A program made the position numbers and the translations under genes. From positions 1 through 29,670 of the IMG/VR virus record IMGVR_UViG_3300045988_131075: a stretch of 29,670 bases of DNA. The stretch is one strand, 5' to 3'. Shown here in pieces: positions 156-18,373 of this stretch; within the stretch, counting starts at the first letter, position 1, and each line of letters starts with the position of its first letter. The stretch is from a virus. The notes beneath the pieces were generated by a model. That model worked only from the letters and a program-made list of their open reading frames with translations. It made no database searches and had not been told where the DNA came from.

Positions 156-211
156 TGCCGATCGATTTAACCAACCAACAACCACATTTTTCCATCTCCG
201 TTCTCCGAATC

Positions 212-252
212 TAAAAAAAAAGAGAGACTTTTTTTTAGTCTCTCTTTTTTCA
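212..252. terminator. Bidirectional intrinsic terminator: the hairpin agagagact-T8-agtctctct is flanked by an A9 run on the left and a T-run on the right.
   Basis: A perfect 9-bp stem. The A-run on the + strand becomes the T-run for the minus-strand gene that ends at 320. Confidence 0.7.
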
Positions 253-319
253 TATTAAGCAATTCTTGGTGAAATTGTCGATTCTTAGGATGAAAAGTAT
301 CTCACCCGACACATTGTGT

Positions 320-697
320 TCACTTATTGATGAACGTATTCAAAAAATCGGCAATTACATCATCATCAGTTCTCTTGACCTTCTTAACCTTTACCGGCTC
401 ACTTTTGGGAAAAAGTACGTCAAGAAGATCGTTAATCCCAGTCATAAGACCGTAAACCTCAGTAAAGATATTCTCCACATCGGACGCGGTCAACGCGGAA
501 TCCTTGTAACCATTAAGAGCGACATACTCGTTAATCCGATCAGCGATTTCCTGCGCGAGCGCGGTCTTCCGATCGGCCTGCTTGGTTTCCTTCTCCACCT
601 GCTTAACCGCATCGTTCAGAGACTTAGCCATTTCGTCCGCAATAGCCTGAGCGTCCTCACCATTTTTCAGACGAGCAATAATATCATTCATATCCAT
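320..697 (-). CDS. Hypothetical early protein of about 125 aa, beginning MDMNDIIARLKNGEDAQAIADEMAKSLNDAVKQ. The start was moved to the ATG that has an AAGAGG Shine-Dalgarno site 7 nt upstream; the ORF track's longer start at 778 lacks an RBS.
   Basis: Minus-strand ORF. Promoter TTGACA(751-756 rc)-17-TATAAT(728-733 rc) lies directly upstream. The RBS, on the + strand, is cctctt at 705-710. Confidence 0.6.
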   Translation of the reverse strand: MDMNDIIARLKNGEDAQAIADEMAKSLNDAVKQVEKETKQADRKTALAQEIADRINEYVALNGYKDSALTASDVENIFTEVYGLMTGINDLLDVLFPKSEPVKVKKVKRTDDDVIADFLNTFINK

Positions 698-1097
698 ATG
701 AATACCTCTTTTCTTATTTTCTATATATATTATATACTTTTTTTTTAAAAATGTCAAGATTTTTTTGGACGAAAACATACGCGTGAAACAATGTAAGGGC
801 GAAGCAATTTTTAATTAATCATAAGGCATATGATCCTACGCGGGCTTAAAAAAGTCTTTTTTTACCATTATAACATATTTTTTATAAAAAGTCAATTTTC
901 GGGATTTTTTTGGGCCATATGGAGAGGTGCTAGAAGTATGAAAAATTTTGCATATGGGTATACCGATCGGAAACTCGGCCCGGCACGTTCCATCGCGGGC
1001 CGGCCAAATAGACTGAGCATTCCGGGATTTTAGTCTGAGTCTATTTTAAACGTTTTTTTCGCGCAAAATTTACTAAACCTATAATTATTCCGAAATT

Positions 1098-1205
1098 CCG
1101 CCCGGAGCGTCAGTGATCGGGCGGTCCATTATACCACATTTTCCGATCGGTGTCAATAGGCAAAATGCACAAAAAAATCAGCAGGTTTTAGTCAACCTGC
1201 TGATT
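1098..1205. promoter_or_regulatory. Boundary module C1. It contains a GC hairpin ccgcccg-N13-cgggcgg (1098-1124) and a minus-strand promoter (-10 rc at 1128-1135 within GTGGTATAAT, -35 rc tgtcaa at 1151-1156). It ends with a bidirectional terminator hairpin at 1177-1204.
   Basis: Same architecture as C2-C6. Only a weak TATAAT sits on the + strand at about 1078, with no good -35. Confidence 0.65.
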
Positions 1206-1211
1206 GAATAT

Positions 1212-1628
1212 TTATGCAAGAAATGCGCTTACAATTTCATCGAACACTGTGGGGTTAATGTCCACATTAAAAAAGCGGTCGTTCTTGCGGAACGCTTTGG
1301 GGTATCGTCTAATCAGTTCCGCACGCAACGCGCTTTCCGCACCCTCGGCGGGATAGTCCCCGCAAGAACGGATTCGATGAACTTCAACGCGCGTGATAGA
1401 ATACTTTTTCGAGTATTCACCGATTTCATCACGCAAACGCCCTACAACATCTTTTGCGGAAGTGCCTACCTTGTTAAATTCAAGTTCGTCGTTGTGGTAA
1501 AACTTGAAAAAGTAAACTGCTTGTTCATTTTTCAGATTCTCGCCACAATTAGGCATAAACTCCATAGAAACGGGCGGTCTACCGTCCTTGAATCGACGTA
1601 ACTTAATAGTAATTTCTTCCATTAACAC
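1212..1628 (-). CDS. Hypothetical early protein of about 135 aa. The exact start is uncertain (GTG as in the ORF track, or the ATG two codons downstream).
   Basis: The ORF ends 7 bp from the C1 terminator. The conserved 29-nt leader element at 1641-1669 is upstream. Confidence 0.55.
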   Translation of the reverse strand: MLMEEITIKLRRFKDGRPPVSMEFMPNCGENLKNEQAVYFFKFYHNDELEFNKVGTSAKDVVGRLRDEIGEYSKKYSITRVEVHRIRSCGDYPAEGAESALRAELIRRYPKAFRKNDRFFNVDINPTVFDEIVSAFLA

Positions 1629-1745
1629 AAAATCCTCTCTATTGATTGAGGTTTACCATCGTTCTCTCAACCATTATTTTTTGCACTTTTTTGCTTGTTT
1701 TCGGGTGAAAAACCGCATTTTTCAGCGGTTTTTCACCCTTTTTTG

Positions 1746-2153
1746 TCAATTTTTGGGCTTTCGCTTCTGAATCAGGGTCAATTCATAGTCATTTTCGCCC
1801 ACATGGAACGCAATCATGCGCTCAATGTTCGTGATTTCCACATTTTCGCACGCATTTTCGCTGTTTTCACGCAAAAAAGTCGCAAGTTCAGCGATAATCG
1901 AGCGTTTTGTGGGGTTTTCCTTGCGCTGTCGCTTCTCAAACTTATAAGCGGTCGGCGCTTTGCGTGTTCCGGTCTTAGAATACTTGTTAGCTTCTTTGAG
2001 CTTTTCCGCGGACAAGTCAAAGTCTTTGGCGATTCCATGGTCAATGTCATCATCGTCCATGAGAATTTCTTTTGCTTCCTCGGCAGTACAATCCAACTTT
2101 TTCATCAGATTATCAATCTTTGCCTGAAAGTCCTTTTCACTCATTTTAGGCAT
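1746..2153 (-). CDS. Hypothetical early protein (135 aa) with an acidic, K-rich middle segment.
   Basis: RBS GGGGG 8 nt upstream of the ATG. Consensus promoter directly upstream, TTGACA(2201-2206 rc)-17-TATAAT(2178-2183 rc). Confidence 0.65.
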   Translation of the reverse strand: MPKMSEKDFQAKIDNLMKKLDCTAEEAKEILMDDDDIDHGIAKDFDLSAEKLKEANKYSKTGTRKAPTAYKFEKRQRKENPTKRSIIAELATFLRENSENACENVEITNIERMIAFHVGENDYELTLIQKRKPKN

Positions 2154-2221
2154 TTCTTTTGCCCCCTTTCAAGTATGATTATAACACCGCCGTCAGCAAA
2201 TGTCAAGAGAAATTTTTGGGA

Positions 2222-2250
2222 GCGCCTGATTTTTTTTCAGGCGCTCCCCT
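2222..2250. terminator. Strong intergenic hairpin gggagcgcctga-T8-tcaggcgctccc between two minus-strand genes. Possibly a terminator or attenuator, but it has no clear distal T-run.
   Basis: A 12-bp perfect stem with a T8 loop. It lies immediately downstream of gene 2255..2632 and upstream of the promoter at 2178-2206. Confidence 0.4.
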
Positions 2251-2254
2251 TGAA

Positions 2255-2632
2255 TCAATGCGCCATGCGGAAGTAGGACTTGCGCTTGTCCACAATCTTT
2301 TCCACCGTGTCTGCGTCAATCATCTGGCGCAGAAGAGCGGAAACGCGCTGGTTGGTGAGGTCGCCCAGACCGTCCACATTCTTAATGAGGTCGGTCACGG
2401 TATACAGCTTGTCAGGATTCGCGGACAGCTCAGCAAAGATAATGTCCTTGTAGCCGTCGTTGGCAATCTGATTCGCGGTCGGCTTCTTATCACCGGCGTT
2501 CTTGCGAGACAGCAGGTCGATTTCGTGATTGATAAACTCAACCATAGCGGGGTCAGCCTGAACCTCGCTCATTTTGAGCAAAGCCTCGAAACGGTCGCGC
2601 TTGGTGAGCTTCTTAACAGTAGAAGTAGACAT
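2255..2632 (-). CDS. Paralog A of a duplicated 125-aa early protein. The C-terminal part (KLYTVTDLIK...RVSALLRQMIDADTV) could be a winged-helix-like DNA-binding fold.
   Basis: RBS AAAGGAATTGATACT-ATG is identical to that of paralog B. Promoter TTGACA(2707-2712 rc)-17-TATACT(2684-2689 rc). About 70% identity to 4668..5048. Confidence 0.7.
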   Translation of the reverse strand: MSTSTVKKLTKRDRFEALLKMSEVQADPAMVEFINHEIDLLSRKNAGDKKPTANQIANDGYKDIIFAELSANPDKLYTVTDLIKNVDGLGDLTNQRVSALLRQMIDADTVEKIVDKRKSYFRMAH

Positions 2633-2930
2633 AGTATCAATTCCTTTCTTTGGCGGTAGGTCGCTACCCTTTTGATATTATTAAGTATACCACATTTTAG
2701 AGGGCTTGTCAAGAGGTTTCGCAAACTTTTCACACGAATTACTACCCCGACCTGACGGATAATTTATTGTTTGTTGATTCAATCTATTTGTCAGCAAAAA
2801 TGCTTCGAGGATAATTGGTTCAATCAAACTCACTTTCACGTTCAACGTTTGGCTTTACAACGTGGTGTATTATGTTTTCTTCCTATACTTTCTCAAGGTC
2901 GCGCGCCCTCGGATTTCTTGGGCTACTCCC

Positions 2931-3290
2931 TCTTGACATTTTCTATTGTAGCACACTCGCTGGGATTTGTCAAGAAGTTTTCAAGAAAAAACTCATGAAT
3001 TTTTTCTTTTATCCCGTGCGTTCCGCTCCGAAGAGACCTTAACGTAATAGGTGAACGGTCTATTGCTACTTCCAACCGTAGCCCCACACCGACCTGTGGC
3101 TCAGGGGTTTCCCTCTTGACATTATTTATTGTAGCACTTTTCGCGCTACTTGTCAAGAGGGAATTTCAAATTTCTTTGAAAACGGGTCAGTTACCGAGTT
3201 ATCACACCCATCAGCGAAGCCGTTCGGCAATTCACTGTTCCCTCCTGACATTATCTATTATAGCAGATTGCCCACAGATTACAATTGACA
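2931..3290 (-). promoter_or_regulatory. Non-coding array of three palindromic promoter-like elements, E1 (2931-2975), E2 (3114-3160) and E3 (3243-3290). Each has the form cTCTTGACAtt-N6-ATTGTAGCA-N12-TTGTCAAGA. On the minus strand each reads as TTGACA-17-TGCTACAAT (E1, E2) or as a perfect extended -10 TGCTATAAT (E3).
   Basis: No ORF with an RBS lies within 2690-3340. The elements are spaced about 185 and 130 bp apart. The ORF-track 77-aa ORF at 2923..3156 is just a translation of these repeats. Confidence 0.6.
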
Positions 3291-3342
3291 AAATAACCAA
3301 ATTACGGGAAAAAATTTTCTTCACTTTTGGTCAACTTTTCTC

Positions 3343-3490
3343 TTGACAAAATTGGCGGGGCGTGGTATAATGGAAAATTCGGACCGCCACGTGCGCCAGC
3401 GGTCCGCCAATTTTATCACAAAAATCCGCGTTTGTCAATAGGCAAAATAGACAAAAAAAACTGCCCATTTTTGGGCAGTTTTTTATTTTA
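3343..3490. promoter_or_regulatory. Boundary module C2. It has a + promoter TTGACA(3343-3348)-17-TATAAT(3366-3371) with TG extension, and a GC hairpin cggaccgc-N12-gcggtccg (3380-3406). A minus promoter follows (-10 rc 3410-3415 with TG, -35 rc 3433-3438), then a bidirectional terminator (stem 3461-3478, T-run to 3484).
   Basis: All elements were read directly. The convergent promoters face each other across the hairpin. Confidence 0.75.
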
Positions 3491-3673
3491 GTCCAGCAGG
3501 TTAATCTCGCCAGGAATCCTAAAAGAATCCGCGTCCAGCGTGGAATTATAGTCCTCGGTAAAGAGTTCAATCATTCCACACTCTGCGCAGATAATATAGT
3601 CATGGTCGATTAAAATGCCCATGTGAGGGTCATTGTCATCAGGGACTACAAAAAGGACTTGTTTAGCGTTCAT
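3488..3673 (-). CDS. Small early protein of about 61 aa (MNAKQVLFVVPDDNDPHMGILIDHDYIICAECGMIELF...), with CxxC plus His and Asp residues that might bind metal.
   Basis: Start re-assigned to the ATG with AAGAGG 8 nt upstream. The gene ends inside the C2 terminator. The hairpin-embedded promoter at 3722-3750 is upstream. Confidence 0.6.
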   Translation of the reverse strand: MNAKQVLFVVPDDNDPHMGILIDHDYIICAECGMIELFTEDYNSTLDADSFRIPGEINLLD

Positions 3674-3750
3674 GTAAAACACCTCTTTCATTTGATACAT
3701 TGATTATACCATAGGGAATAGGACTTGTCAAGCCCTATTCCCTATTTTTT

Positions 3751-4527
3751 TTAGCTCATGTTTATCATGGGATTTTCCTTAATGTTTCGCATGAGCGCGC
3801 GCTGAAACTCGGTAGGCTTGGGGCGTTCCACCGTGGGAGTTTTGAAAAGGGACTTTTCCATTTCCTTGTGCTGTCGGACGCAATAGCGCAGAATCTCAAC
3901 TTCAATGAGGACATCTTCTAATCCCGTGTGGGATTCATCAAAACTGTCCTCGCCGCTGATAAAGCGATAGAGAATTTCTGCGGTGAAACGGAGCTGTCCG
4001 TTCTTGGTCTTGTAGCCGTTCTTTTCGCAATAGTCGCGGTAAGTGGGCATTTTGCCGATAACCTGACGTGCCATTTTCAACGTGTCCCAAATTTCGAGGT
4101 CGTAGGGGAAGAAATAGCGATACTTGCTTTTCGTGTCCCATCTTTGCGCGTTGTTACAGGCGTTAAGGTCGAACCGCATATTATGAGCGCAGACAAAAGA
4201 GCAGTTGTAGCGCTCGACACATTCGCAGAACGCAAGACGAATTTCGTAAAGGTCAGCCATAATGCGAGTGCCGTTTTGAATGTCCTCGACATAGCGGGGA
4301 ATCTTGTCGGCATAGTATGCGGACTGCATGAGGTCGCGCTCGTAGCAGAAAATGTCGCGATTCACAAAAGAATGAGTTTCATAAACATTTCCCTTGGAAT
4401 CAATGACCGCCCACCCAAAGTCGTAGGGCAATACATTTGACATATCCAGCTTATCGCCGTCCTGAATGGTGTTTGCGGTTTCCGTGTCCAGCATAATACC
4501 GTAGTTTCTGCGCCTATCAATACCCAT
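3751..4527 (-). CDS. DEDDh-family (DnaQ-like) 3'-5' exonuclease, 258 aa.
   Basis: Motif Exo I is IMLDTETAN. The C-terminal segment YRFISGEDSFDESHTGLEDV carries the His-x4-Asp of Exo III. Promoter TTGACA-17-TATACT, then the conserved 29-nt leader and AGGAGA RBS upstream (4540-4620). Confidence 0.7.
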   Translation of the reverse strand: MGIDRRRNYGIMLDTETANTIQDGDKLDMSNVLPYDFGWAVIDSKGNVYETHSFVNRDIFCYERDLMQSAYYADKIPRYVEDIQNGTRIMADLYEIRLAFCECVERYNCSFVCAHNMRFDLNACNNAQRWDTKSKYRYFFPYDLEIWDTLKMARQVIGKMPTYRDYCEKNGYKTKNGQLRFTAEILYRFISGEDSFDESHTGLEDVLIEVEILRYCVRQHKEMEKSLFKTPTVERPKPTEFQRALMRNIKENPMINMS

Positions 4528-4667
4528 TTTATCGTCTCCTATTGGAAAAGTAGATTGAGGTTTACCATCGTTCTCTCAACCTCTAAATATAGTATAGCAC
4601 TTTACTATTGGTTTGTCAATAGTTTTTTTGTGGGGCAGGGGATTTTTTTATCCCCTGCCCTTTTCCC

Positions 4668-5048
4668 TTATGCGCGGGAGAAGTAGGACTTGCGGTTGCC
4701 AACCGTCTTGACAACCGTGTCTGCGTCAATCATCTGACGCAGAAGAGCGGAAACGTGCTGGTTGGTATACTCCGCAAGCTTGGGAACGCCCTTGATGAGG
4801 TCGGTCACAGTATACAGCTTGTCGGGGTTTGCGGTCATCTCGTCCAGAATGACCTGCTTCACAGCGTCATTCTCCATCTGCTTGGCCGTGGGCTTCTTGT
4901 CGCCCGCGTTCTTTTTGACGAGCAGTTCAATCTCATGCTCGATGAACGCCACCATATCAGGATTTGCCTGAACCTCGCTCATTTTGAGCAGGGCCTCGAA
5001 ACGGTCACGCTTGGTGAGCTTCTTAGTCGTAGTAGTAGAAGTAGCCAT
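4668..5048 (-). CDS. Paralog B of the duplicated 125-aa early protein. It starts at MATSTTTTKKLTKRD, not at the ORF-track M 17 codons upstream, because the promoter -10 at 5101-5107 would put the TSS inside that extension.
   Basis: RBS aaaggaattgatact-ATG is identical to that of 2255..2632. The two proteins are about 70% identical with conserved ends. Confidence 0.7.
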   Translation of the reverse strand: MATSTTTTKKLTKRDRFEALLKMSEVQANPDMVAFIEHEIELLVKKNAGDKKPTAKQMENDAVKQVILDEMTANPDKLYTVTDLIKGVPKLAEYTNQHVSALLRQMIDADTVVKTVGNRKSYFSRA

Positions 5049-5545
5049 AGTATCAATTCCTTTCTGGTTTTTGAGACTGTCCTTGTCTATGGTAGTCATT
5101 ATATCATAGGCGGGAGTAGGTTGTCAATAGGTTTTTGCAATTTTTTTTAAGGGCGGTCGCGAGGTTTATTACTATACATCTTGTTTATACCTACCTTTAT
5201 CTATACTCTTAATCCAATTCAATTTACTAAGCCATTAGTTTTTAAGGCGGTGGACGAGCATTAGAAGTCATCTTGTTTTTACCTCTCTCATTTGATGTAT
5301 TCATTATACCCTACGTAGAACGATTTGTCAAGGGGTTTTTCAAACTTTTTTGAAAGTTTGTTCGGCACGCCACGCTTGGAACATTCCGTCGGATTTTGGT
5401 ATAATGGTCAAGGGAACTGCCTTTCCGCAGGTCTTACTCTTTCCTCCTGACATTATGTAGTATAGCAGATTGGTAATGATTTGTCTATTGGTAAAATGAC
5501 CAAATAACGGGAAAAAATAAAATTGAAATTTGTGCGAAATTTCTC

Positions 5546-5690
5546 TTGACAAAAATGCTGGCAGGGTGTATAATGGTAAATTCCGGCCGTAGCGCGCGGA
5601 AACGGCCGGCCCATTATATCACATTCAAGGAACTTTGTCAATAGTCAAAGTAAACAAAAAAATCTCCCCATTTTTGGGGAGATTTTCTTT
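5546..5690. promoter_or_regulatory. Boundary module C3. It has a + promoter TTGACA(5546-5551)-17-TATAAT(5569-5574), a hairpin ccggccg-N13-cggccgg (5583-5609) and a minus promoter (-10 rc ATTATA at 5613-5618 with TG, -35 rc at 5636-5641). It ends in a terminator, tctcccca-T5-ggggaga at 5664-5682 plus T-run.
   Basis: Direct reading. Confidence 0.75.
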
Positions 5691-5947
5691 TAGCCAATCA
5701 CATTGACTTCGGTTTTGACAGGCGTTACCATCTTGTCGCGCGAGAACTCGCGAACCTGACCCGTTTCAAGATTCACCGCGTAGCAATACTGCAAACCTCT
5801 CGACCGGACAAACGGCGTGTTGTTGTTGCTGTCAATTTTGAGATACATTCCCATACCGACCCCATTGGAGCGCAGAGTGGTGAACGTGCCACCGCTGGGA
5901 ATGTTGATAATTTGGAGCTGACCCTTAGTGCCAAAATTTACTTTCAT
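5690..5947 (-). CDS. Hypothetical early protein of about 85 aa (MKVNFGTKGQLQIINIPSGGTF...). Start set at the ATG with AAGAGGG 7 nt upstream.
   Basis: Ends at the C3 terminator. The following gene (5962..6276) lies 15 bp upstream. Confidence 0.55.
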   Translation of the reverse strand: MKVNFGTKGQLQIINIPSGGTFTTLRSNGVGMGMYLKIDSNNNTPFVRSRGLQYCYAVNLETGQVREFSRDKMVTPVKTEVNVIG

Positions 5948-5961
5948 TTTTATTCCCTCTT

Positions 5962-6276
5962 TCAAAATTCTTCTAAAAAGTGAATCGGCTTATGGTTTGG
6001 TCTAAAAAATGCCATTCCCTCGGTATAAAGAGAATTAAACAAATCTGCGGACACTTCAAACCATTCCGTGCCGCTAATGCGATTGCCTAACTCACTTAAA
6101 GTCAGATGACAAGAATTTTCCATGTCTCGACTTCCAGCGCAAGTGCTACGCATTATTGCTTTTGGATTATGGCTATAATAGCTTTTACGACGCTTTGCAA
6201 GGTTTTTAGTGCCGTCAGAATAGCCAACTTTAACCAAATGGCTATTGGTTAAATTATCCATCATCAAATACAGCAT
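5962..6276 (-). CDS. T5orf172-domain (GIY-YIG-like) protein, 104 aa.
   Basis: N-terminal LVKVGYSDGTKNLAKRRKSY and the C-terminal TEWFEV motif are typical of the T5orf172 family. RBS GAGG 5 nt before the ATG. Confidence 0.5.
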   Translation of the reverse strand: MLYLMMDNLTNSHLVKVGYSDGTKNLAKRRKSYYSHNPKAIMRSTCAGSRDMENSCHLTLSELGNRISGTEWFEVSADLFNSLYTEGMAFFRPNHKPIHFLEEF

Positions 6277-6283
6277 TTTTACC

Positions 6284-6427
6284 TCACAGCAGATGGATAT
6301 TAACCCATTCTGCGGTCACAAGTCCGATTTCCTTAGAGACAACCGTTTCATAGCGGTAATTACCGCCATCAGTTCGTCCGGTCACTTTGGCGAGAACGCC
6401 AAGAGTAAGCCAAAAATAAGGCATCAT
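6284..6427 (-). CDS. Small protein of about 47 aa (MMPYFWLTLGVLAKVTGRTDGGNYRYETVVSKEIGLVTAEWVNIHLL). The ORF-track 97-aa ORF is an N-terminally over-extended version that overlaps the upstream gene.
   Basis: RBS AAAGGGG 8 nt upstream of the ATG. The preceding gene ends 6 bp upstream. Confidence 0.45.
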   Translation of the reverse strand: MMPYFWLTLGVLAKVTGRTDGGNYRYETVVSKEIGLVTAEWVNIHLL

Positions 6428-6432
6428 TTTTA

Positions 6433-6639
6433 TCACCCCTTTGGACCGACCGTAAAGAGCGAACGCAGAAGCAACAGAACAATCCAAATTGCGAGTGCCA
6501 GCTTCCACGAGAACACAATGACGAAAGTGCCGATTGCGGTGATACCGAGGGCGGGAAGAAGCCAACAGAGAAGCCAAACCAGACCAGAGGTGAGCAGGAA
6601 CGAAATTGCGAGAGACAGCAGAATCAAAAGAACAAACAT
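6433..6639 (-). CDS. Small polytopic membrane protein, 68 aa, almost entirely hydrophobic.
   Basis: Promoter, then the conserved leader (gaatacatcaaatgaaaaggaga) and RBS upstream at 6640-6700. The -35 lies in the gggctttgtcaagccc palindrome. Confidence 0.6.
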   Translation of the reverse strand: MFVLLILLSLAISFLLTSGLVWLLCWLLPALGITAIGTFVIVFSWKLALAIWIVLLLLRSLFTVGPKG

Positions 6640-6694
6640 TTTATTTTCTCCTTTTCATTTGATGTATTTATTATACCATTGGAGTAGGGCTTTG

Positions 6695-7195
6695 TCAAGC
6701 CCTTTTCTCCAAAAGTTCCGAAAGTTTTTCGATAATGTTTACTGCGGTCGGGTCAATGGTAGCGCCCAAGTGCCAACCATTCCGAACTTTTTCATTATCG
6801 TCAACCAAGATGGACACGTCATAGCGGTCGCGCACGCTGTCGGCCTTAGTTGCGCCATACTGGACGCCATGGAAGTGGTCATAGTGGAAGCCCTGTTCTT
6901 CAAGCCATGCGCGCTTTGCTTCACGCACGAGGCTTTTGTATTCCTCGCTCGAATCCTTAGAGAGCCAAGTAATGATATTGATTTCCCAGCCCTCGGCGCG
7001 GAGAAGTTCGCAAACCTCATTCAATTCAGCCATGTCGCACATGGGAACGGCAGTTCGATAGGGCTTAGGATTTTCCGAACGGAGAAGCGCAAGCCAATCC
7101 TTGACGCCGTAGAGGTCAGCGATAGTGCCGTCCATGTCAAAGTTGATGGAGCGCCGACGAGCCACAACGTGGGACTTGATGTAAGTGATTTTCAT
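6695..7195 (-). CDS. HAD-superfamily 5'(3')-deoxyribonucleotidase-like protein, 166 aa.
   Basis: HAD motif I is FDMDGTIAD (DxDGT). Motif IV is ILVDDN near the C-terminus. The size and layout match the NT5C-type phage nucleotidases. Confidence 0.6.
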   Translation of the reverse strand: MKITYIKSHVVARRRSINFDMDGTIADLYGVKDWLALLRSENPKPYRTAVPMCDMAELNEVCELLRAEGWEINIITWLSKDSSEEYKSLVREAKRAWLEEQGFHYDHFHGVQYGATKADSVRDRYDVSILVDDNEKVRNGWHLGATIDPTAVNIIEKLSELLEKRA

Positions 7196-7201
7196 AGACG
7201 T

Positions 7202-7444
7202 TTATCTCTCCCCATTATCGTCTTTTTTAATAGCAACGCAGTCGTTTGACAGGTCATAGCAGAGCATAACCATAGTGTCAATAGCTTCGCGGTTGAAGCA
7301 AGTGCCGTTAGCTTCAAATGTTGCGGTGTCCTGATGGTTGAGTTCAGCACGAATACTTTCAAGAATTTCACTCATGCGGTCGATAGTATCGAGTTCTTCA
7401 TCAGTGAATGTGATGATGGCTTTCGAGCAAGAGTTGATAATCAT
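7202..7444 (-). CDS. Hypothetical acidic early protein, 80 aa.
   Basis: Consensus promoter TTGACA-17-TATAAT upstream (7455-7510 rc) and GGGG RBS. Stop and start abut the neighbouring genes. Confidence 0.55.
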   Translation of the reverse strand: MIINSCSKAIITFTDEELDTIDRMSEILESIRAELNHQDTATFEANGTCFNREAIDTMVMLCYDLSNDCVAIKKDDNGER

Positions 7445-7535
7445 TTTGGTTTACCCCTTTCCTTTACTATACTTGTATTATACCACTATTGGATTTGCTT
7501 GTCAAGTGTTTTTTTCAAAATTTTCGCGGTCTTTC

Positions 7536-7679
7536 TCAATACACGAAAGATAAGAAATTAAGCAAAATCAGCACAGGAATAGCGTATACGATATTGAAAT
7601 AGTCCCACCCGAGACTTTCACAGGAATAAGCAAAAATAAAGCCAAAAACGAGGCCGAAAATGCCGATTAAAATAATCAT
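7536..7679 (-). CDS. Small membrane peptide of about 47 aa (MIILIGIFGLVFGFIFAYSCESLGWDYFNIVYAIPVLILLNFLSFVY). Its start ATG overlaps the stop of the upstream gene (ATGA).
   Basis: AGAGGA 6 nt upstream of the ATG. This is the C-terminal part of the ORF-track ORF 7536..7721. Confidence 0.45.
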   Translation of the reverse strand: MIILIGIFGLVFGFIFAYSCESLGWDYFNIVYAIPVLILLNFLSFVY

Positions 7680-7939
7680 TCTAAATCCTCTATATGACCA
7701 TAGTGTTCGTTGATATGCCATTCAAGATAGGTATTAGTCGCAATCTGAATTTCTCTATCCAGCCAGTCATAAAAATCCTCGGGGTCGCGGGCCATGCGTT
7801 CATCAATGATATCTTTGAGAGAAACGCGGTGAGCAAGGAATTCCGAAATATCAAGAGAATCCATAGAAGAAAGAAGTTCTTCCACACATTCTCCGCGAGT
7901 AGAGAACTTTTCAGTAGAAAAATCGTGAGTGTAATACAT
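7676..7939 (-). CDS. Hypothetical acidic early protein, 87 aa.
   Basis: Promoter TAGACA-17-TATACT (7960-8000 rc) and GGGG RBS. The longer overlapping ORF 7690..8124 reads through this promoter and is rejected. Confidence 0.55.
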   Translation of the reverse strand: MYYTHDFSTEKFSTRGECVEELLSSMDSLDISEFLAHRVSLKDIIDERMARDPEDFYDWLDREIQIATNTYLEWHINEHYGHIEDLE

Positions 7940-8057
7940 TGTTTGTATCCCCTTTCTTTATGGTAATTATAGTATAGCAGATTATTACATTCTTGTCTAT
8001 TGGTAAAATGCCCAAATTCGGGAAAATAATTAGTTGGACTTTTGGCTAAATTTCCTA

Positions 8058-8200
8058 TTGACAAATTGCTGAGATGGTGGTATAATGGAATTTCCGGCCG
8101 TGGCATGCGCGAACGGCCGGCCATTTTATCACACTATTGGATTTTTGTCAATAGGCAAAATAGCTAAAAAAATGAGGTGAAAATTCACCTCAAATTTTAT
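8058..8200. promoter_or_regulatory. Boundary module C4. It has a + promoter TTGACA(8058-8063)-17-TATAAT(8081-8086) with TGG extension, a hairpin ccggccg-N13-cggccgg (8094-8120) and a minus promoter (-10 rc 8123-8128, -35 rc 8146-8151). The terminator is gaggtgaaaattcacctc at 8174-8191.
   Basis: Direct reading. Confidence 0.75.
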
Positions 8201-8376
8201 CTGTGATAACTGGTAGTAATGGTTTTGAAAATCTGATAGATATTTTCATCTTCCATCAACTTTTGGATAAAAGCATCAGCTTCTTCTTCGGAATCAAAAC
8301 TAACTCGATTATCATAATACTGGTCCCAAGGATTTTTACCGCTGTAATCAACCCGGAATGTCTTTTCAATTTCCAT
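8197..8376 (-). CDS. 59-aa acidic protein missed by the 60-aa ORF threshold (MEIEKTFRVDYSGKNPWDQYYDNRVSFDSEEEADAFIQKLMEDENIYQIFKTITTSYHR).
   Basis: RBS AAAAGGGG 8 nt upstream. Hairpin-embedded promoter at 8410-8447. The gene ends at the C4 terminator. Confidence 0.55.
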   Translation of the reverse strand: MEIEKTFRVDYSGKNPWDQYYDNRVSFDSEEEADAFIQKLMEDENIYQIFKTITTSYHR

Positions 8377-8451
8377 TTTATTTGCCCCTTTTCTTTGATG
8401 CTTTTATTGTAGCACAAGGGACTTGTTTTGTCAAGCCCCTTGTGCTATTTT

Positions 8452-8904
8452 TTAACGTTCAGACACAATGCTAAGGTAGCGGACAATCATGTCCATTTCG
8501 CAACCCATGTCTTGCTGGTCGCAAACCGCATAACCCACAAGGTCGCCGTCCGCACAAATCGGGTAAACACCATAAGTGTTATTGAAAACAAATGGCTTTC
8601 TTTTAAAATCCCACTGGGTCGAAACATAAGGCGGAAAGTTTTCCATACCCCGCAGTTTCACGGTAGTATCATAGATTGCGATGGGACGCAGACCGGAATT
8701 CGATGCCATTGTAATAGCGGTTCGCAGAGCTTCTTCGGTCAGCGAACCAAGCACCGAATATCTCTTGAAGCAAACGCAGTCGTTGTCTTCAATGAAGATT
8801 TCAAGCGGGTCGCCCTCGCGAATCTTCAAAGTCCGGCGAATCTCTTTCGGAATGACCACACGTCCAAGGTCATCAATTCTGCGAACAATACCAGTAGCTT
8901 TCAT
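8452..8904 (-). CDS. SpoVT/AbrB-family transcriptional regulator, 150 aa, with an N-terminal swapped-hairpin AbrB domain.
   Basis: The N-terminus MKATGIVRRIDDLGRVVIPKEIRRTLKIREGDPLEIF is near-identical in pattern to Bacillus AbrB and SpoVT N-domains. Promoter and conserved leader upstream. Confidence 0.75.
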   Translation of the reverse strand: MKATGIVRRIDDLGRVVIPKEIRRTLKIREGDPLEIFIEDNDCVCFKRYSVLGSLTEEALRTAITMASNSGLRPIAIYDTTVKLRGMENFPPYVSTQWDFKRKPFVFNNTYGVYPICADGDLVGYAVCDQQDMGCEMDMIVRYLSIVSER

Positions 8905-8968
8905 TTTAATTTTCCCCTTTCACTTGATACGTTAAGTATAGCAGAACAAAAGGCTTTTGTCAAGCCCT

Positions 8969-9451
8969 TTATTCAAGATTTTTGCTTTCTGCGACAAAAT
9001 ATTTTGCTTCATATTGATTGGCAATAGCCTTGACTTTTGCACTTTCCTTTTGGGTCGCGCAGTAAAAATTGAAAAGCGTATGTTTATCGCTTAATTTAAT
9101 GTAAGAGTGTGGAACGTCATGCAAGCCAAAGTCAATGGTATTAGTGTATCTTGTCGGGACAGTCAGCTCGACTTTCCATAGCTTGTCTTTGCGGGCTTTC
9201 TCTTCAATCCACTTGACAAAGTAGACGCCTACGAAATTACAAACAGCAGTAATAGCCATTTTCAACCAGATAGGCATACCGTCCGCGGAAGTCAGCACAA
9301 TCACATAGGAATAAAAACCATAAGTGATAGCATTGATAAGAGATGCGCTAATTTTTCCGCCGTTGACAGTCAAAATGCTTTTGATAGTTGACAGAACCAC
9401 ATTTACCGCCGTGCAAAGCGCGAACAGAAGAATTGTATTCATTATTATCAC
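8969..9451 (-). CDS. Membrane protein of 160 aa with about 3 TM segments in the N-terminal half.
   Basis: ORF with RBS AAGGAAAGGG. A promoter is upstream at 9480-9505. Confidence 0.55.
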   Translation of the reverse strand: MIIMNTILLFALCTAVNVVLSTIKSILTVNGGKISASLINAITYGFYSYVIVLTSADGMPIWLKMAITAVCNFVGVYFVKWIEEKARKDKLWKVELTVPTRYTNTIDFGLHDVPHSYIKLSDKHTLFNFYCATQKESAKVKAIANQYEAKYFVAESKNLE

Positions 9452-11819: not shown

Positions 11820-11897
11820 GGTGTTTCTCCCTTTCCTTTATTGTATCTTTATTGTAGCATATAGGGCTTGTTTTGTCAAGCCCTATATGCAATTTTT

Positions 11898-12206: not shown

Positions 12207-12334
12207 GTTGTTATCCCTTTCCGGTTTGGTAGGTTTTCCTTCCCTTACTGTGATTATAGTATAGCACCGATTCGGGATTCTGTCTATTGACATTATGCAC
12301 AAACTTTCGTCATAAAAATTGTTGAACTTGCCTA

Positions 12335-12455
12335 TTGACACAAAATTCCGGCCGCGCCTGGCGTGCACGGCCGGCCGATTATATCACCAAGTTTTGAAAT
12401 TGTCAATAGGCAAAATATACAAAAAAATCTCCCCATTTTTGGAGAGATTTTTAAT
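12335..12455. promoter_or_regulatory. Boundary module C6. It has a + TTGACA (12335-12340) abutting the hairpin ccggccg-N13-cggccgg (12348-12374) and a minus promoter (-10 rc ATTATA at 12378-12383 with TG, -35 rc at 12401-12406). The terminator is tctcccca-T5-ggagaga (12428-12447).
   Basis: Like C5, it lacks the + strand -10. Confidence 0.7.
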
Positions 12456-17293: not shown

Positions 17294-17317
17294 ATAAATA
17301 TAGACTGGAGGTAAAAA

Positions 17318-18373
17318 ATGATAAAACTTGATTATTCTTTACAAACTCCAGAAGAAAGAAATCAATTAGTCGAACAAATTTTGGCTGATAATCCAGATCC
17401 GCCTGAAAAGTATTTAGAAATTTTAGCAGACTATTTGGTTCTTTGTATGGAGAAACAAGAAAAAAAGGAGAAAAAATTATTAACTGATAATCGTATGGCT
17501 ACAGTTAATAAGCGTGAGACTTCTTTTGAAGGTCTTGTTTCCCAACTCGAAAATGGCGAAGATGGAATTTATAATTTAATTACAGATAATAGAAATACAA
17601 TATTTCAACCACATATTACAATTACAAAAAAAGATTTAGAAGAGATACCAAGTTTAAATTAGTTAAGAGAAGCCATTAATGTTTGGGAGGCTAAATTAAA
17701 AGTAACAGAAGGTAAAGATGCTTTTGTTATTAAAAAGGCTCTTATTGAAATGCGTAAAGATTAGTATGTTATGAAAAATGCTTATCGTCGTCCAATAGTG
17801 CCTACAAAATTAACCAGATCAAAGTCTTATATTCCATTAGATGATAAAACATTTATTTTTGATGATGATGGTTTTCCCATTCCTGATGGAATTAGTTTAT
17901 TAAGACCTGAAATATGTTCTGCGGTTTTATGTAATTATTCCCGATTAAAACAAGATAGTTGGGGCGAATATGATAAAGATTTATGGTATTTAATGGAGGA
18001 TTTTGATAAGCTTTGTGATAAAGCGTTAGCTAATTATCCTCTTTATGATAGAATCGTTGAATATAAAATTGATGGTTTACAAAATATTGACATTCAAGAG
18101 AAAATACAAATGGAATTTGGTATTAAGCACAGCCTTGAATATATTTCAAGTTTATGGCGTAATAAAATTCCAAAATTAATTGCTTCGACTGCGGAAGATG
18201 AATATTTAGATAATTATTATTTAAATGTTGAAAAAGGTAAATATAAAAAATGTAGTCGTTGTGGTAAAATAAAATTAGCTCATAATAAATATTTTAGTAA
18301 AAATAAAACAAGTAAAGATGGCTTTTATAGTATTTGTAAAAGTTGTCGAAATTCTAAGGTCAAAAAATCTTAA
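17318..18373 (+). CDS. First late gene, about 351 aa with 2 in-frame TAG codons (at 17660 and 17762). It has a C-terminal Zn-ribbon, CSRCG...AHNKY...CKSCRN, possibly an HNH-like nuclease or a regulator.
   Basis: ORF-track ORFs 17318..17662 and 17771..18373 are in the same frame and are separated only by TAG codons. TAA stop. Confidence 0.55.

Follow-up and report, generated by a model that had tools for sequence, protein, structure and literature searches.

A tandem array of putative structured small RNA genes in the early region of a phAss-1-like human gut phage

Introduction

Many phages of the human gut have recoded stop codons, but the early programme of such phages is, to our knowledge, almost unknown. 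One locus of such a phage raises the question of what a run of strong promoters does where no protein gene follows them. The DNA concerned is a stretch of 29,670 nucleotides (nt), positions 1 to 29,670 of the IMG/VR virus record IMGVR_UViG_3300045988_131075, hereafter the window. A preliminary description, made from the sequence alone, had pointed to 650 bp without genes (2690-3340) carrying three palindromic promoter-like elements on the minus strand, E1 to E3, and had proposed as candidate roles non-coding RNAs, a decoy for a sigma factor or another -35-binding regulator, or a relic of deleted genes. The stretch is indeed free of protein genes, but it is longer than described (2633-3487, 855 bp) and holds three predicted RNA units. 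Taken as a whole, the locus is probably best explained as a tandem array of three independently promoted, structured small RNA (sRNA) genes closed by terminal helices, which would be expressed early and act in trans.

Consensus promoters in a stretch free of protein genes

The defining features of a sigma-70/sigma-A-type promoter are the hexamers TTGACA and TATAAT, a distance of 16-18 nt between them and, in many cases, a TG extension. Judged by their sequence, E1, E2 and E3 qualify as promoters of this type (Table 1), matching the consensus at 11 of 12 positions plus TG in both E1 and E2, and at 10 of 12 plus TG in E3. The pattern first described, TTGACA with a 17-nt spacer or a perfect -10 box, holds in that E1 and E2 show the former and E3 a perfect TATAAT; the -35 box of E3, however, is TTGTAA with a spacer of 16 nt. 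Likewise, E1 and E2 do lie inside inverted repeats, whereas E3 is only half-palindromic. The E2 core is bracketed by a perfect 13-nt repeat (TTCCCTCTTGACA, 3109-3121; TGTCAAGAGGGAA, 3151-3163), a length reached in none of 200 dinucleotide shuffles, and E1 has a shorter one (TCCCTCTTGACA, 2927-2938; TTGTCAAGA, 2966-2975). E3 carries the downstream arm (TTCCCTCCTGACA, 3238-3250) and no TGTCAAGA upstream. A fourth promoter of the series, E0, lies at the left edge of the interval first described and serves the flanking 125-aa (amino acid) gene, with a leader that has a local 5' hairpin (GGUAG-CGAC-CUACC) and a true ribosome-binding site, AAAGGAA.

The E1, E2 and E3 promoters are all conserved in 14 related IMG/VR contigs (L001-L014), the E3 promoter being conserved at 91-99% and always attached to a convergent-promoter module on its right. 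Nine promoter-like sites were counted in 2600-3500, versus 1.7 +/- 1.3 in shuffled sequences. The left 16 kb of the window, however, contains about 35 near-consensus promoters, almost all on the minus strand (81 promoter-like sites versus 34.6 expected), and strong promoters are thus not special to 2690-3340.

Table 1. Features of the locus and its surroundings (positions in the window; RNA units as predicted)
Feature	Position	Strand	Description
E3 promoter	3257-3284	-	-35 TTGTAA 3284-3279, 16-nt spacer, TGC-TATAAT, -10 3262-3257
E2 promoter	3128-3156	-	-35 TTGACA 3156-3151, 17-nt spacer, TGC-TACAAT, -10 3133-3128
E1 promoter	2945-2973	-	-35 TTGACA 2973-2968, 17-nt spacer, TGC-TACAAT, -10 2950-2945
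E0 promoter and 5' leader of the 125-aa gene	2633-2712	-	-35 2712-2707, -10 2689-2684
E3 RNA unit, 102 nt	3151-3252	-	13-bp terminal helix and three hairpins
E2 RNA unit, 156 nt	2968-3123	-	10-bp terminal helix and internal hairpins
E1 RNA unit, 234 nt	2707-2940	-	10-bp terminal helix, Ha, candidate Hb, hypervariable hairpin
Conserved module preceding the array in every relative	3343-3484	both	face-to-face promoters, hairpin, bidirectional terminator
Flanking protein gene, 125 aa, no Pfam family	2255-2632	-	downstream of the array; would receive any read-through
Fourth gene-less cassette	5326-5487	-	TAGACA...TGC-TATACT, leader AUGUCAGGAGGAAAG, 128-nt body (5453-5326) ending CCCCTTGACA

The palindromes as arms of predicted RNA terminal helices

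Every unit starts, about 6 nt past its -10 box, with the leader AAUGUCA(A/G)GAGGG, whose complement, (UU)CCCUCUUGACA, lies at the unit's end. The leader has two possible partners, its own -35 region or that of the next promoter. Covariation shows the partner to be the arm at the next promoter, in a predicted helix of 10-13 bp closing each RNA. The E3 leader pairs over 13 bp with the region upstream of E2 although its own promoter has no arm, and in related contigs the leaders of many units pair over 10-14 bp downstream and over 6 bp at most with their own promoter. In one type of E1 homologue, type B, the 3' arm (GUUCCCCUGUUG(A/G)CA) lies about 45 nt ahead of the next real promoter and is still complementary to an extended leader, UGUCAAGAGGGGAAC (15 positions, one G.G mismatch), a UUGGCA variant retaining a U:G pair. 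In the E3 family, five sequences have A:U at pair 14:96 and the other three have G:C. Most changes restricted to one arm (A to G on the 5' side, C to U on the 3' side, including CUUCUUGACA in this window) give G:U pairs on the minus-strand RNA; the same changes would be A.C mismatches in DNA or on the other strand, which favours pairing in the minus-strand RNA.

The units are packed head to tail, and each 3' arm thus also supplies the following promoter with its -35 box and upstream flank. The E2 -35 box with 7 upstream nt is the 3' arm of the E3 helix, the E1 -35 box with its flank is that of the E2 helix, and the E0 -35 box with CCTC is that of the E1 helix. The window has 33 minus-strand promoters, and the trinucleotide (C/T)TC stands directly upstream of TTGACA in four of them; the three promoters located behind a leader-bearing RNA unit are all among these four. 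Since the leader pairs downstream, a 'palindromic promoter' amounts to a promoter core flanked by the 3' arm of the preceding RNA and the 5' arm of the RNA that follows. A 'promoter hairpin', in which the leader would pair with the -35 arm of the same unit's promoter, was rejected as the selected pairing but may form in read-through RNA.

These observations bear on a reading in which the palindromes (TCTTGACA...TGTCAAGA) act as DNA, either as operators for a dimeric protein, as decoys for sigma or a -35-binding factor, or as recombination sites, the RNA being irrelevant. The perfect repeat around the E2 core would suit such a role, and so would the position of the cassette joints described below, which fall within these blocks. 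However, E3 and many other units that lack the upstream arm keep the downstream complement, the type-B 3' arm stands away from any promoter, and most arm variants, UUGGCA included, form wobble pairs only as minus-strand RNA and would leave A.C mismatches in a cruciform; the joints are equally explained by homologous recombination in the sole sequence that the units share. We therefore consider this reading quite improbable, and the dimeric-protein or decoy role suggested at first is disfavoured as the primary one, in view of the arm pairing found where a unit's own promoter arm is missing, the displaced type-B arm, the covariation at 14:96 and the G:U-type one-sided changes.

The leader is found beyond the array as well. 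On mRNAs it pairs locally (GAGGGC-AAA-GCCCUC), with the true ribosome-binding site located later, and the same promoter with the AUGUCAAGAGGG leader heads an array of 24 tRNA genes in contig L140 (about 200-9340, minus strand) and adjoins a tRNA-Asn gene in contig L097 (1143-1355). Its presence ahead of a tRNA array suggests that the leader is a general start for early stable RNAs, and the theme common to all these transcripts is a 5' end predicted to be buried in a helix beginning at nt 3.

Compensatory changes within the RNA bodies

Of the transcript lengths first proposed (about 230, 120 and 100 nt), those of E1 and E3 agree with the units delimited here, whereas the E2 unit is longer (156 nt). 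In the E3 RNA, the terminal helix (5' arm 3238-3250, 3' arm 3151-3163) encloses a variable hairpin 1, hairpin 2 (3182-3211) and an A/U-rich hairpin 3, and the predicted fold has a z-score of -5.3. In the eight distinct homologues, 184 of 184 cells are paired over three helices, with one compensatory pair in each of them, the terminal helix included. The 18-nt loop of hairpin 2 (GUGAUAACUCGGUAACUG, 3188-3205) is invariant in the homologues and unique in the window, and hairpin 1 has been rebuilt among relatives with different stems and with loops of the GAAC, GCAA or UCGG type.

Pattern scans of viral and human-gut metagenome contigs retrieved 58 distinct E1-type sequences, which fall into three types with a common scaffold and a differing middle. 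Their 5' and 3' blocks are nearly invariant around a segment of 55-68 nt (a long hairpin at about 2767-2829 in the window), the sequence of which is wholly different among relatives and yet folds as a hairpin in every variant. The terminal helix joins 2929-2938 to 2707-2716. Hairpin Ha (CGAGG-N8-CCUUG), in which 2907-2911 pairs with 2894-2898, is intact in 57 of 57 distinct sequences comprising nine haplotypes, and covaries at pair 2 (GU/GC/AU/UG) and pair 3 (AU/CG). A candidate helix, Hb, would pair GAAAAC (about 2874-2879) with GUUUGC (about 2720-2725), at columns 68-73 and 239-244 of alignment A3, where it reads GUAAAC/GUUUGC, and GUAAG/CUUGU in other types. With Hb, the E1 scaffold would be a three-way junction; the strands at the junction would be conserved and rich in purines, and the middle domain would be the exchangeable part that distinguishes types A, B and C. 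When Ha, Hb and the invariant end of the terminal helix are counted together, 96.8% of 315 cells are paired and four pairs have changed on both sides, versus 19-51% pairing in helices slid out of register, and the covariation score lies above all 500 shuffles. The covariation analysis proposed at the outset for the E1 transcript has thus come out in favour of a conserved scaffold.

When a MAFFT alignment of E1 was scanned automatically for stacks that covary, only Ha was recovered cleanly, and a possible CCG/CGG hairpin in UUAUCCGUCAGGUCGGGG is broken by some variants. A first E1 structure obtained with RNAalifold, with a GCCC/GGGC hairpin and long-range GCGCGA/UCGUGU and CCUUGA/UCGGGG helices, was rejected because these helices are lost in type-B, type-C and L052 homologues, Ha being supported by covariation instead. 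Beyond Ha, candidate Hb and the terminal helix, the fold of the E1 core is mostly tentative.

The E2 RNA is nearly invariant (six haplotypes among 35 copies). Its terminal helix (5' arm 3112-3121, 3' arm 2968-2977) contains one G:U pair in this window, and the predicted interior consists of several hairpins, one of them capped by UUCG, and an A/U-rich 3' hairpin, the only element in which compensatory changes occur (UUCAUGAG / UUCGCGAA / UCCAUGGA). The motif CAGGUCGG is present in both E1 and E2.

Absence of a conserved reading frame

No conserved reading frame was found among the E1 and E3 homologues, and the longest stop-free frames of the stretch span cassette junctions that occur only in this window. 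The units could, in principle, encode micro-proteins, through either a leaderless AUG (MS(R/G)G...) or the use of GGAGGG as a Shine-Dalgarno sequence for a short open reading frame (ORF). An AUG at nt 2-4 in every unit and the use of GGAGGGG as the ribosome-binding site of HicA-like genes in related contigs speak for it. However, one position in an otherwise invariant E1 block takes all four bases, which in the sole AUG-initiated frame yields a stop, Gln, Lys or Glu, so that the ORF would have 18 or more than 40 codons. In addition, E1 homologues differ in length by 1, 2, 8, 12 or 14 nt, insertions and deletions of 1, 2, 8 and 14 nt being out of frame; E3 homologues show a +2-nt difference ahead of the conserved segment that breaks any common frame; the changes preserve pairs rather than being synonymous; and the longest stop-free frames cross those window-only junctions. 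A micro-protein function is accordingly very improbable. The 25-codon, TTG-initiated micro-ORF noted earlier does exist, but its frame is lost in the homologues with the 2-nt difference. By sequence, then, the units lack the conserved frame and length expected of a micro-ORF or leaderless mRNA and show the compensatory helices, the non-triplet length differences and the absence of a conserved frame expected of structured non-coding RNA genes. Among the roles first put forward, it is that of non-coding RNAs that is borne out by the conserved bodies and their compensatory base-pair changes.

Known RNA families do not account for the units. The whole window gave no match at gathering score to Rfam 15, whose models include 6S RNA, tRNA, tmRNA, riboswitches, ribozymes and Y RNA; at E <= 10, the interval 2600-3520 gave sub-threshold noise only, with nothing over E1 or E2 and one snoRNA (small nucleolar RNA)-like match over E3 (21.9 of 49 bits), and the 15 related loci gave tRNAs only. 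ARAGORN found no tRNA in the window. A blastn search of 2400-3800 against 50,697 phage records yielded no match, and literature searches for such RNAs in recoded or gut phages returned nothing specific.

Exchange of units among close relatives

The 14 related contigs share the neighbourhood, and their 258-aa protein is 91-98% identical to that of the window. When pieces of the window were mapped onto them and promoters listed, seven arrangements emerged among the 15 genomes, window included. The window has E3-E2-E1, seven contigs have E2-E1, one has E3-E1 and two have only E1; the three further arrangements carry bodies absent from the window. The joints fall within sequence common to the units, in some cases the -35 block and in others the -10/+1 block. 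Where present, E2 is 96-100% and E3 100% identical, versus 82-96% for the 258-aa gene and 78-98% for the 125-aa gene in the flanking DNA. Sequence comparison shows, therefore, that the units behave as cassettes, which are present, absent or swapped between close relatives.

This conservation speaks to the proposal that the region is a relic or junk left by deleted genes with their promoters retained. The varying length of the array between relatives is what such decay could produce, but the bodies are better conserved than the neighbouring genes, which argues against junk, and they are structured, covary, and recur in more than 80 contigs and more than 30 families of the same plan (see below). 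The relic hypothesis is thus contradicted by the conservation data and is the least credible of those considered.

A weightier alternative would be a cluster of tandem promoters with a long structured 5' untranslated region, in which E3, E2 and E1 would serve to drive and stabilise transcription of the 125-aa gene or, more generally, to load host polymerase early, like the A1-A3 promoters at the left end of T7; the bodies would then be no more than cis-acting spacers or 5' stabilisers. No minus-strand terminator-like site was found between 3340 and 2633, where only A/U-rich hairpins with no U tract occur, and all three promoters would consequently reach the 125-aa gene; moreover, the same leader heads true mRNAs, and E1-type RNAs always lie directly upstream of a promoter and gene. 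On the other hand, the 125-aa gene already has the near-consensus E0 promoter 50 nt upstream, and E2 and E3 are gained or lost between near-identical phages with the gene unaltered. The genes that follow E1-type RNAs are of at least three unrelated kinds, which argues against a gene-specific leader. The E3 loop is invariant at 18 of 18 nt though the 125-aa protein has clearly diverged, and such constancy is unneeded in a passive spacer. We regard this alternative as rather unlikely, though worth keeping in mind.

Distribution of related RNAs

Related RNAs occur in more than 80 gut-phage contigs, and a scan for promoter-leader junctions followed by clustering yielded more than 30 families with bodies of 65-285 nt and the same plan, in large gut-phage contigs. 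The window itself holds a fourth gene-less cassette (5326-5487), of which nine variants were found in relatives. In phage phAss-1 (L234, OQ749652), promoters are similarly dense and convergent modules also occur, as does a leader-bearing cassette of 55 nt (3211-3306 and the unannotated gap 6607-7747). Its cassette overlaps, on the opposite strand, the annotated 'hypothetical protein' coding sequence WIC39741.1, which may be a spurious call, and the homologous early region of phAss-1 abuts a genome end. These RNAs are not mentioned in the available portion of the phAss-1 paper (PMC10607447).

A search for the E1 5' domain in 185,579 bacterial and archaeal genomes gave one match. The contig concerned, a 164-kb 'Mollicutes MAG' (metagenome-assembled genome) sequence, has the same early genes and probably represents phage DNA; there is thus no sign of a host origin for E1. 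Judged by these sequence searches, the RNAs are specific to phages and occur widely in gut metagenomes.

A possible role at the start of infection

In the explanation that we favour, host polymerase of the sigma-70/sigma-A type would fire each promoter right after phage entry, as the consensus match suggests, and each RNA would start about 6 nt past the -10 box at the leader. The 5' end would then pair with the 3' arm of its unit, closing the RNA by a helix of 10-13 bp. The units show no intrinsic terminator of their own in the form of a GC-rich hairpin with a U tract, and with no terminator-like site between them the transcripts would either continue through the following unit and the 125-aa gene or be processed into single RNAs. 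In Firmicutes, a stem at the 5' end protects mRNAs from 5'-dependent decay. The terminal helices may likewise bury the 5' end and define single RNAs or protect them against such decay, and could also act as processing stalks, like those of rRNA and small cytoplasmic RNA precursors. The products would be abundant early accessory RNAs acting in trans, in host takeover, in counter-defence or as protein-binding scaffolds. With modest confidence, trans-acting RNAs are favoured over cis-leaders or DNA sites, since accessory functions in takeover and counter-defence are characteristically early and strongly expressed, with invariant loops and a rapid exchange of cassettes.

Several points weigh against this explanation. 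Transcription start sites, 3' ends, stability and processing were all deduced from sequence. With no terminator-like site between the units, discrete small RNAs would require processing. The covariation comes from few and related sequences (8 for E3, 21-57 for E1), and E2, being nearly invariant, has an internal structure that is mostly a prediction. The leader is generic to early transcripts, mRNAs included, and the complementarity could partly be a by-product of two generic motifs. The cassette family at 5453-5326 has an A.C mismatch in its helix that would be a wobble pair on the other strand. Finally, the antisense targets found in the window for the four RNAs were only the arms themselves, and the trans-acting role is therefore a guess.

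A bolder version, to which we assign a low probability, would see the three units and the more than 30 sibling families as a shuffling arsenal of RNA effectors deployed at the start of infection, an RNA counterpart of the protein islands for anti-defence and host takeover. In its boldest form the RNAs would be promoter-mimic sponges: the terminal helix would reproduce the host -35 box as double-stranded RNA, to which read-through RNA would add a single-stranded spacer and -10 box, and the RNAs would sequester host sigma-A holoenzyme or another host factor while control passes to a phage sigma-like protein and the TAG-recoded late genes.

If the favoured explanation holds, part of the early programme of a recoded gut phage would be non-coding and invisible to protein-based annotation, and two codes would overlap tightly, the same 10-13 nt serving as RNA helix arm and as the -35 box and flank of the next promoter. 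RNAs acting on host factors would provide new tools or targets for host takeover in Clostridia-type gut bacteria, and even if they were only processing or stability devices, they would be reusable parts for stable RNA expression.

Comparison with known systems

The RNA families are undescribed, and the overlap between a helix arm and the next -35 box is unusual; partial parallels exist nevertheless. Phage T7 carries tandem strong host promoters, A1, A2 and A3, at its left end, ahead of the first early gene and near the end of the genome that enters the cell first. As in T7, strong tandem promoters lie here within a few hundred bp of one another in the early region, with no protein gene between them, but the segments separating them are conserved, structured and exchangeable, with terminal helices, and promoters fill an early region of 16 kb. 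The takeover regions of the Bacillus phages SPO1 and SP82 contain many sigma-A promoters and RNase III hairpins, and SP82 has polypurine/STAB-SD stabilisers. Dense consensus promoters, short early units, a purine-rich Shine-Dalgarno-like 5' end and hairpins between units recall this organization, and by sequence the units would fit a STAB-SD or 5' stem stabiliser, a Shine-Dalgarno-like motif or stem very close to the 5' end by which RNA half-life is lengthened (here GAGGG at nt 9-13, helix from nt 3). However, the SPO1/SP82 units encode proteins, whereas no protein is encoded by three consecutive units here, in which the 5' element has its pairing partner in the next -35 box; no sequence similarity to SPO1/SP82 was found.

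The stable RNAs species 1 and 2 of phage T4 (bands C and D), whose function is not known, lie in a tRNA cluster. They too are adjacent small structured phage RNAs, and in relatives of the window the same promoter and leader head tRNA genes; on the other hand, the RNAs described here have no tRNA-like fold, have a promoter each, and belong to unrelated families. A 5'/3' closing helix is also a feature of 6S RNA (RF00013), a rod of about 180-200 nt with a central bubble and a closing stem that binds the sigma-70 holoenzyme and supports synthesis of product RNA (pRNA). Here the closing helix copies a -35 box, which by analogy suggests a polymerase decoy. Nevertheless, no RF00013 match was obtained (E <= 10), and the predicted folds are multi-branched, with no rod and central bubble, that of E1 resembling a three-way junction and that of E3 a multi-hairpin junction.

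Integrons have an IntI integrase, attC sites with RYYYAAC / GTTRRRY cores, and promoterless cassettes. The array resembles them in its short exchangeable cassettes, ordered and split by imperfect palindromes of about 55 bp, but every cassette here has a promoter and the arms CTCTTGACA / TGTCAAGAG differ from the attC cores. No integrase was found among the ORFs of the window scanned, and homologous recombination in the shared blocks suffices for the joints, so that no integron mechanism is needed. Finally, phages use RNA in counter-defence, in the form of RNA anti-CRISPRs (solitary repeats) and pseudo-ToxI antitoxin repeats. These are highly expressed small non-coding RNAs at variable accessory positions that differ among close phage relatives, as the units here would be, but the bodies of E1, E2 and E3 are not repeats of one another.

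Genomic setting and neighbouring elements

The nearest published relatives of the flanking proteins belong to the Enterococcus phages EF1, EF5 and VRE9 and to the human-gut 'Phage Phass-1'. According to the portion of its description available to us, phAss-1 is the type of a clade decoding TAG as glutamine (PMC10607447). The source of the window is a phAss-1-like phage of the human gut whose late genes use TAG as a sense codon; its host is probably a bacterium of the Clostridia/Oscillospiraceae. From 16.5 kb onwards (plus strand, 31% G+C), reading TAG as sense merges ORF fragments into long back-to-back frames of 352, 401, 580, 559 (portal-like), 528 and 305 codons with 1-12 in-frame TAGs, whereas in the left 16 kb (minus strand, about 43% G+C) it alters almost nothing and yields no gene spanning 2633-3487. 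The shift in G+C content, from about 43% to about 31%, falls at the same boundary as the switch from the standard code to the recoded one. With the effect of TAG confined to the right half, the three-RNA locus sits in the standard-code early region of a recoded phage. A sigma-factor-like protein is encoded at 17315-18373 on the plus strand (PHROG 5767, E = 3e-35 over the C-terminal 200 aa); it has an HNH/zinc-finger-like end and two in-frame TAGs and is, by sequence, a candidate phage sigma for the late genes.

To the right of the array lies the conserved module, in which a plus-strand promoter (3343-3371) and a minus-strand promoter (3438-3410) face each other, with a GC-rich hairpin between them (3380-3406); a bidirectional terminator (3455-3484) comes next. 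The plus-strand unit 3378-3494 is predicted to fold like an sRNA of about 115 nt (z = -5.4) that would end at this terminator. Such modules, in which two face-to-face consensus promoters surround a GC-rich hairpin of about 27 nt and AAUUUU follows, recur at 3343-3438, 5546-5641 and 8058-8151, with solitary minus-strand copies near 1156, 10190 and 12406, and the hairpin shows compensatory changes among relatives. After each face-to-face pair, a TAGACA/TTGTAA...TGC-TATA(C/A)T promoter is found (at 3284, 5487 and 7999), and one also follows the solitary copy near 12406, at 12286.

Next to the module, a 70-aa ORF (3488-3700, minus strand) matches relatives as two pieces, about 320 bp apart in most of them, and the window thus seems to carry a deletion or fusion there. 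Hairpins centred on the -35 hexamer were also observed at many protein-gene promoters (3711-3745, 11857-11890, and near 6698, 8434 and 8963), as in ATAGGGAATAGGGC-TTGACAA-GTCCTATTCCCTAT, where the 3' structure of one unit again overlaps the next promoter.

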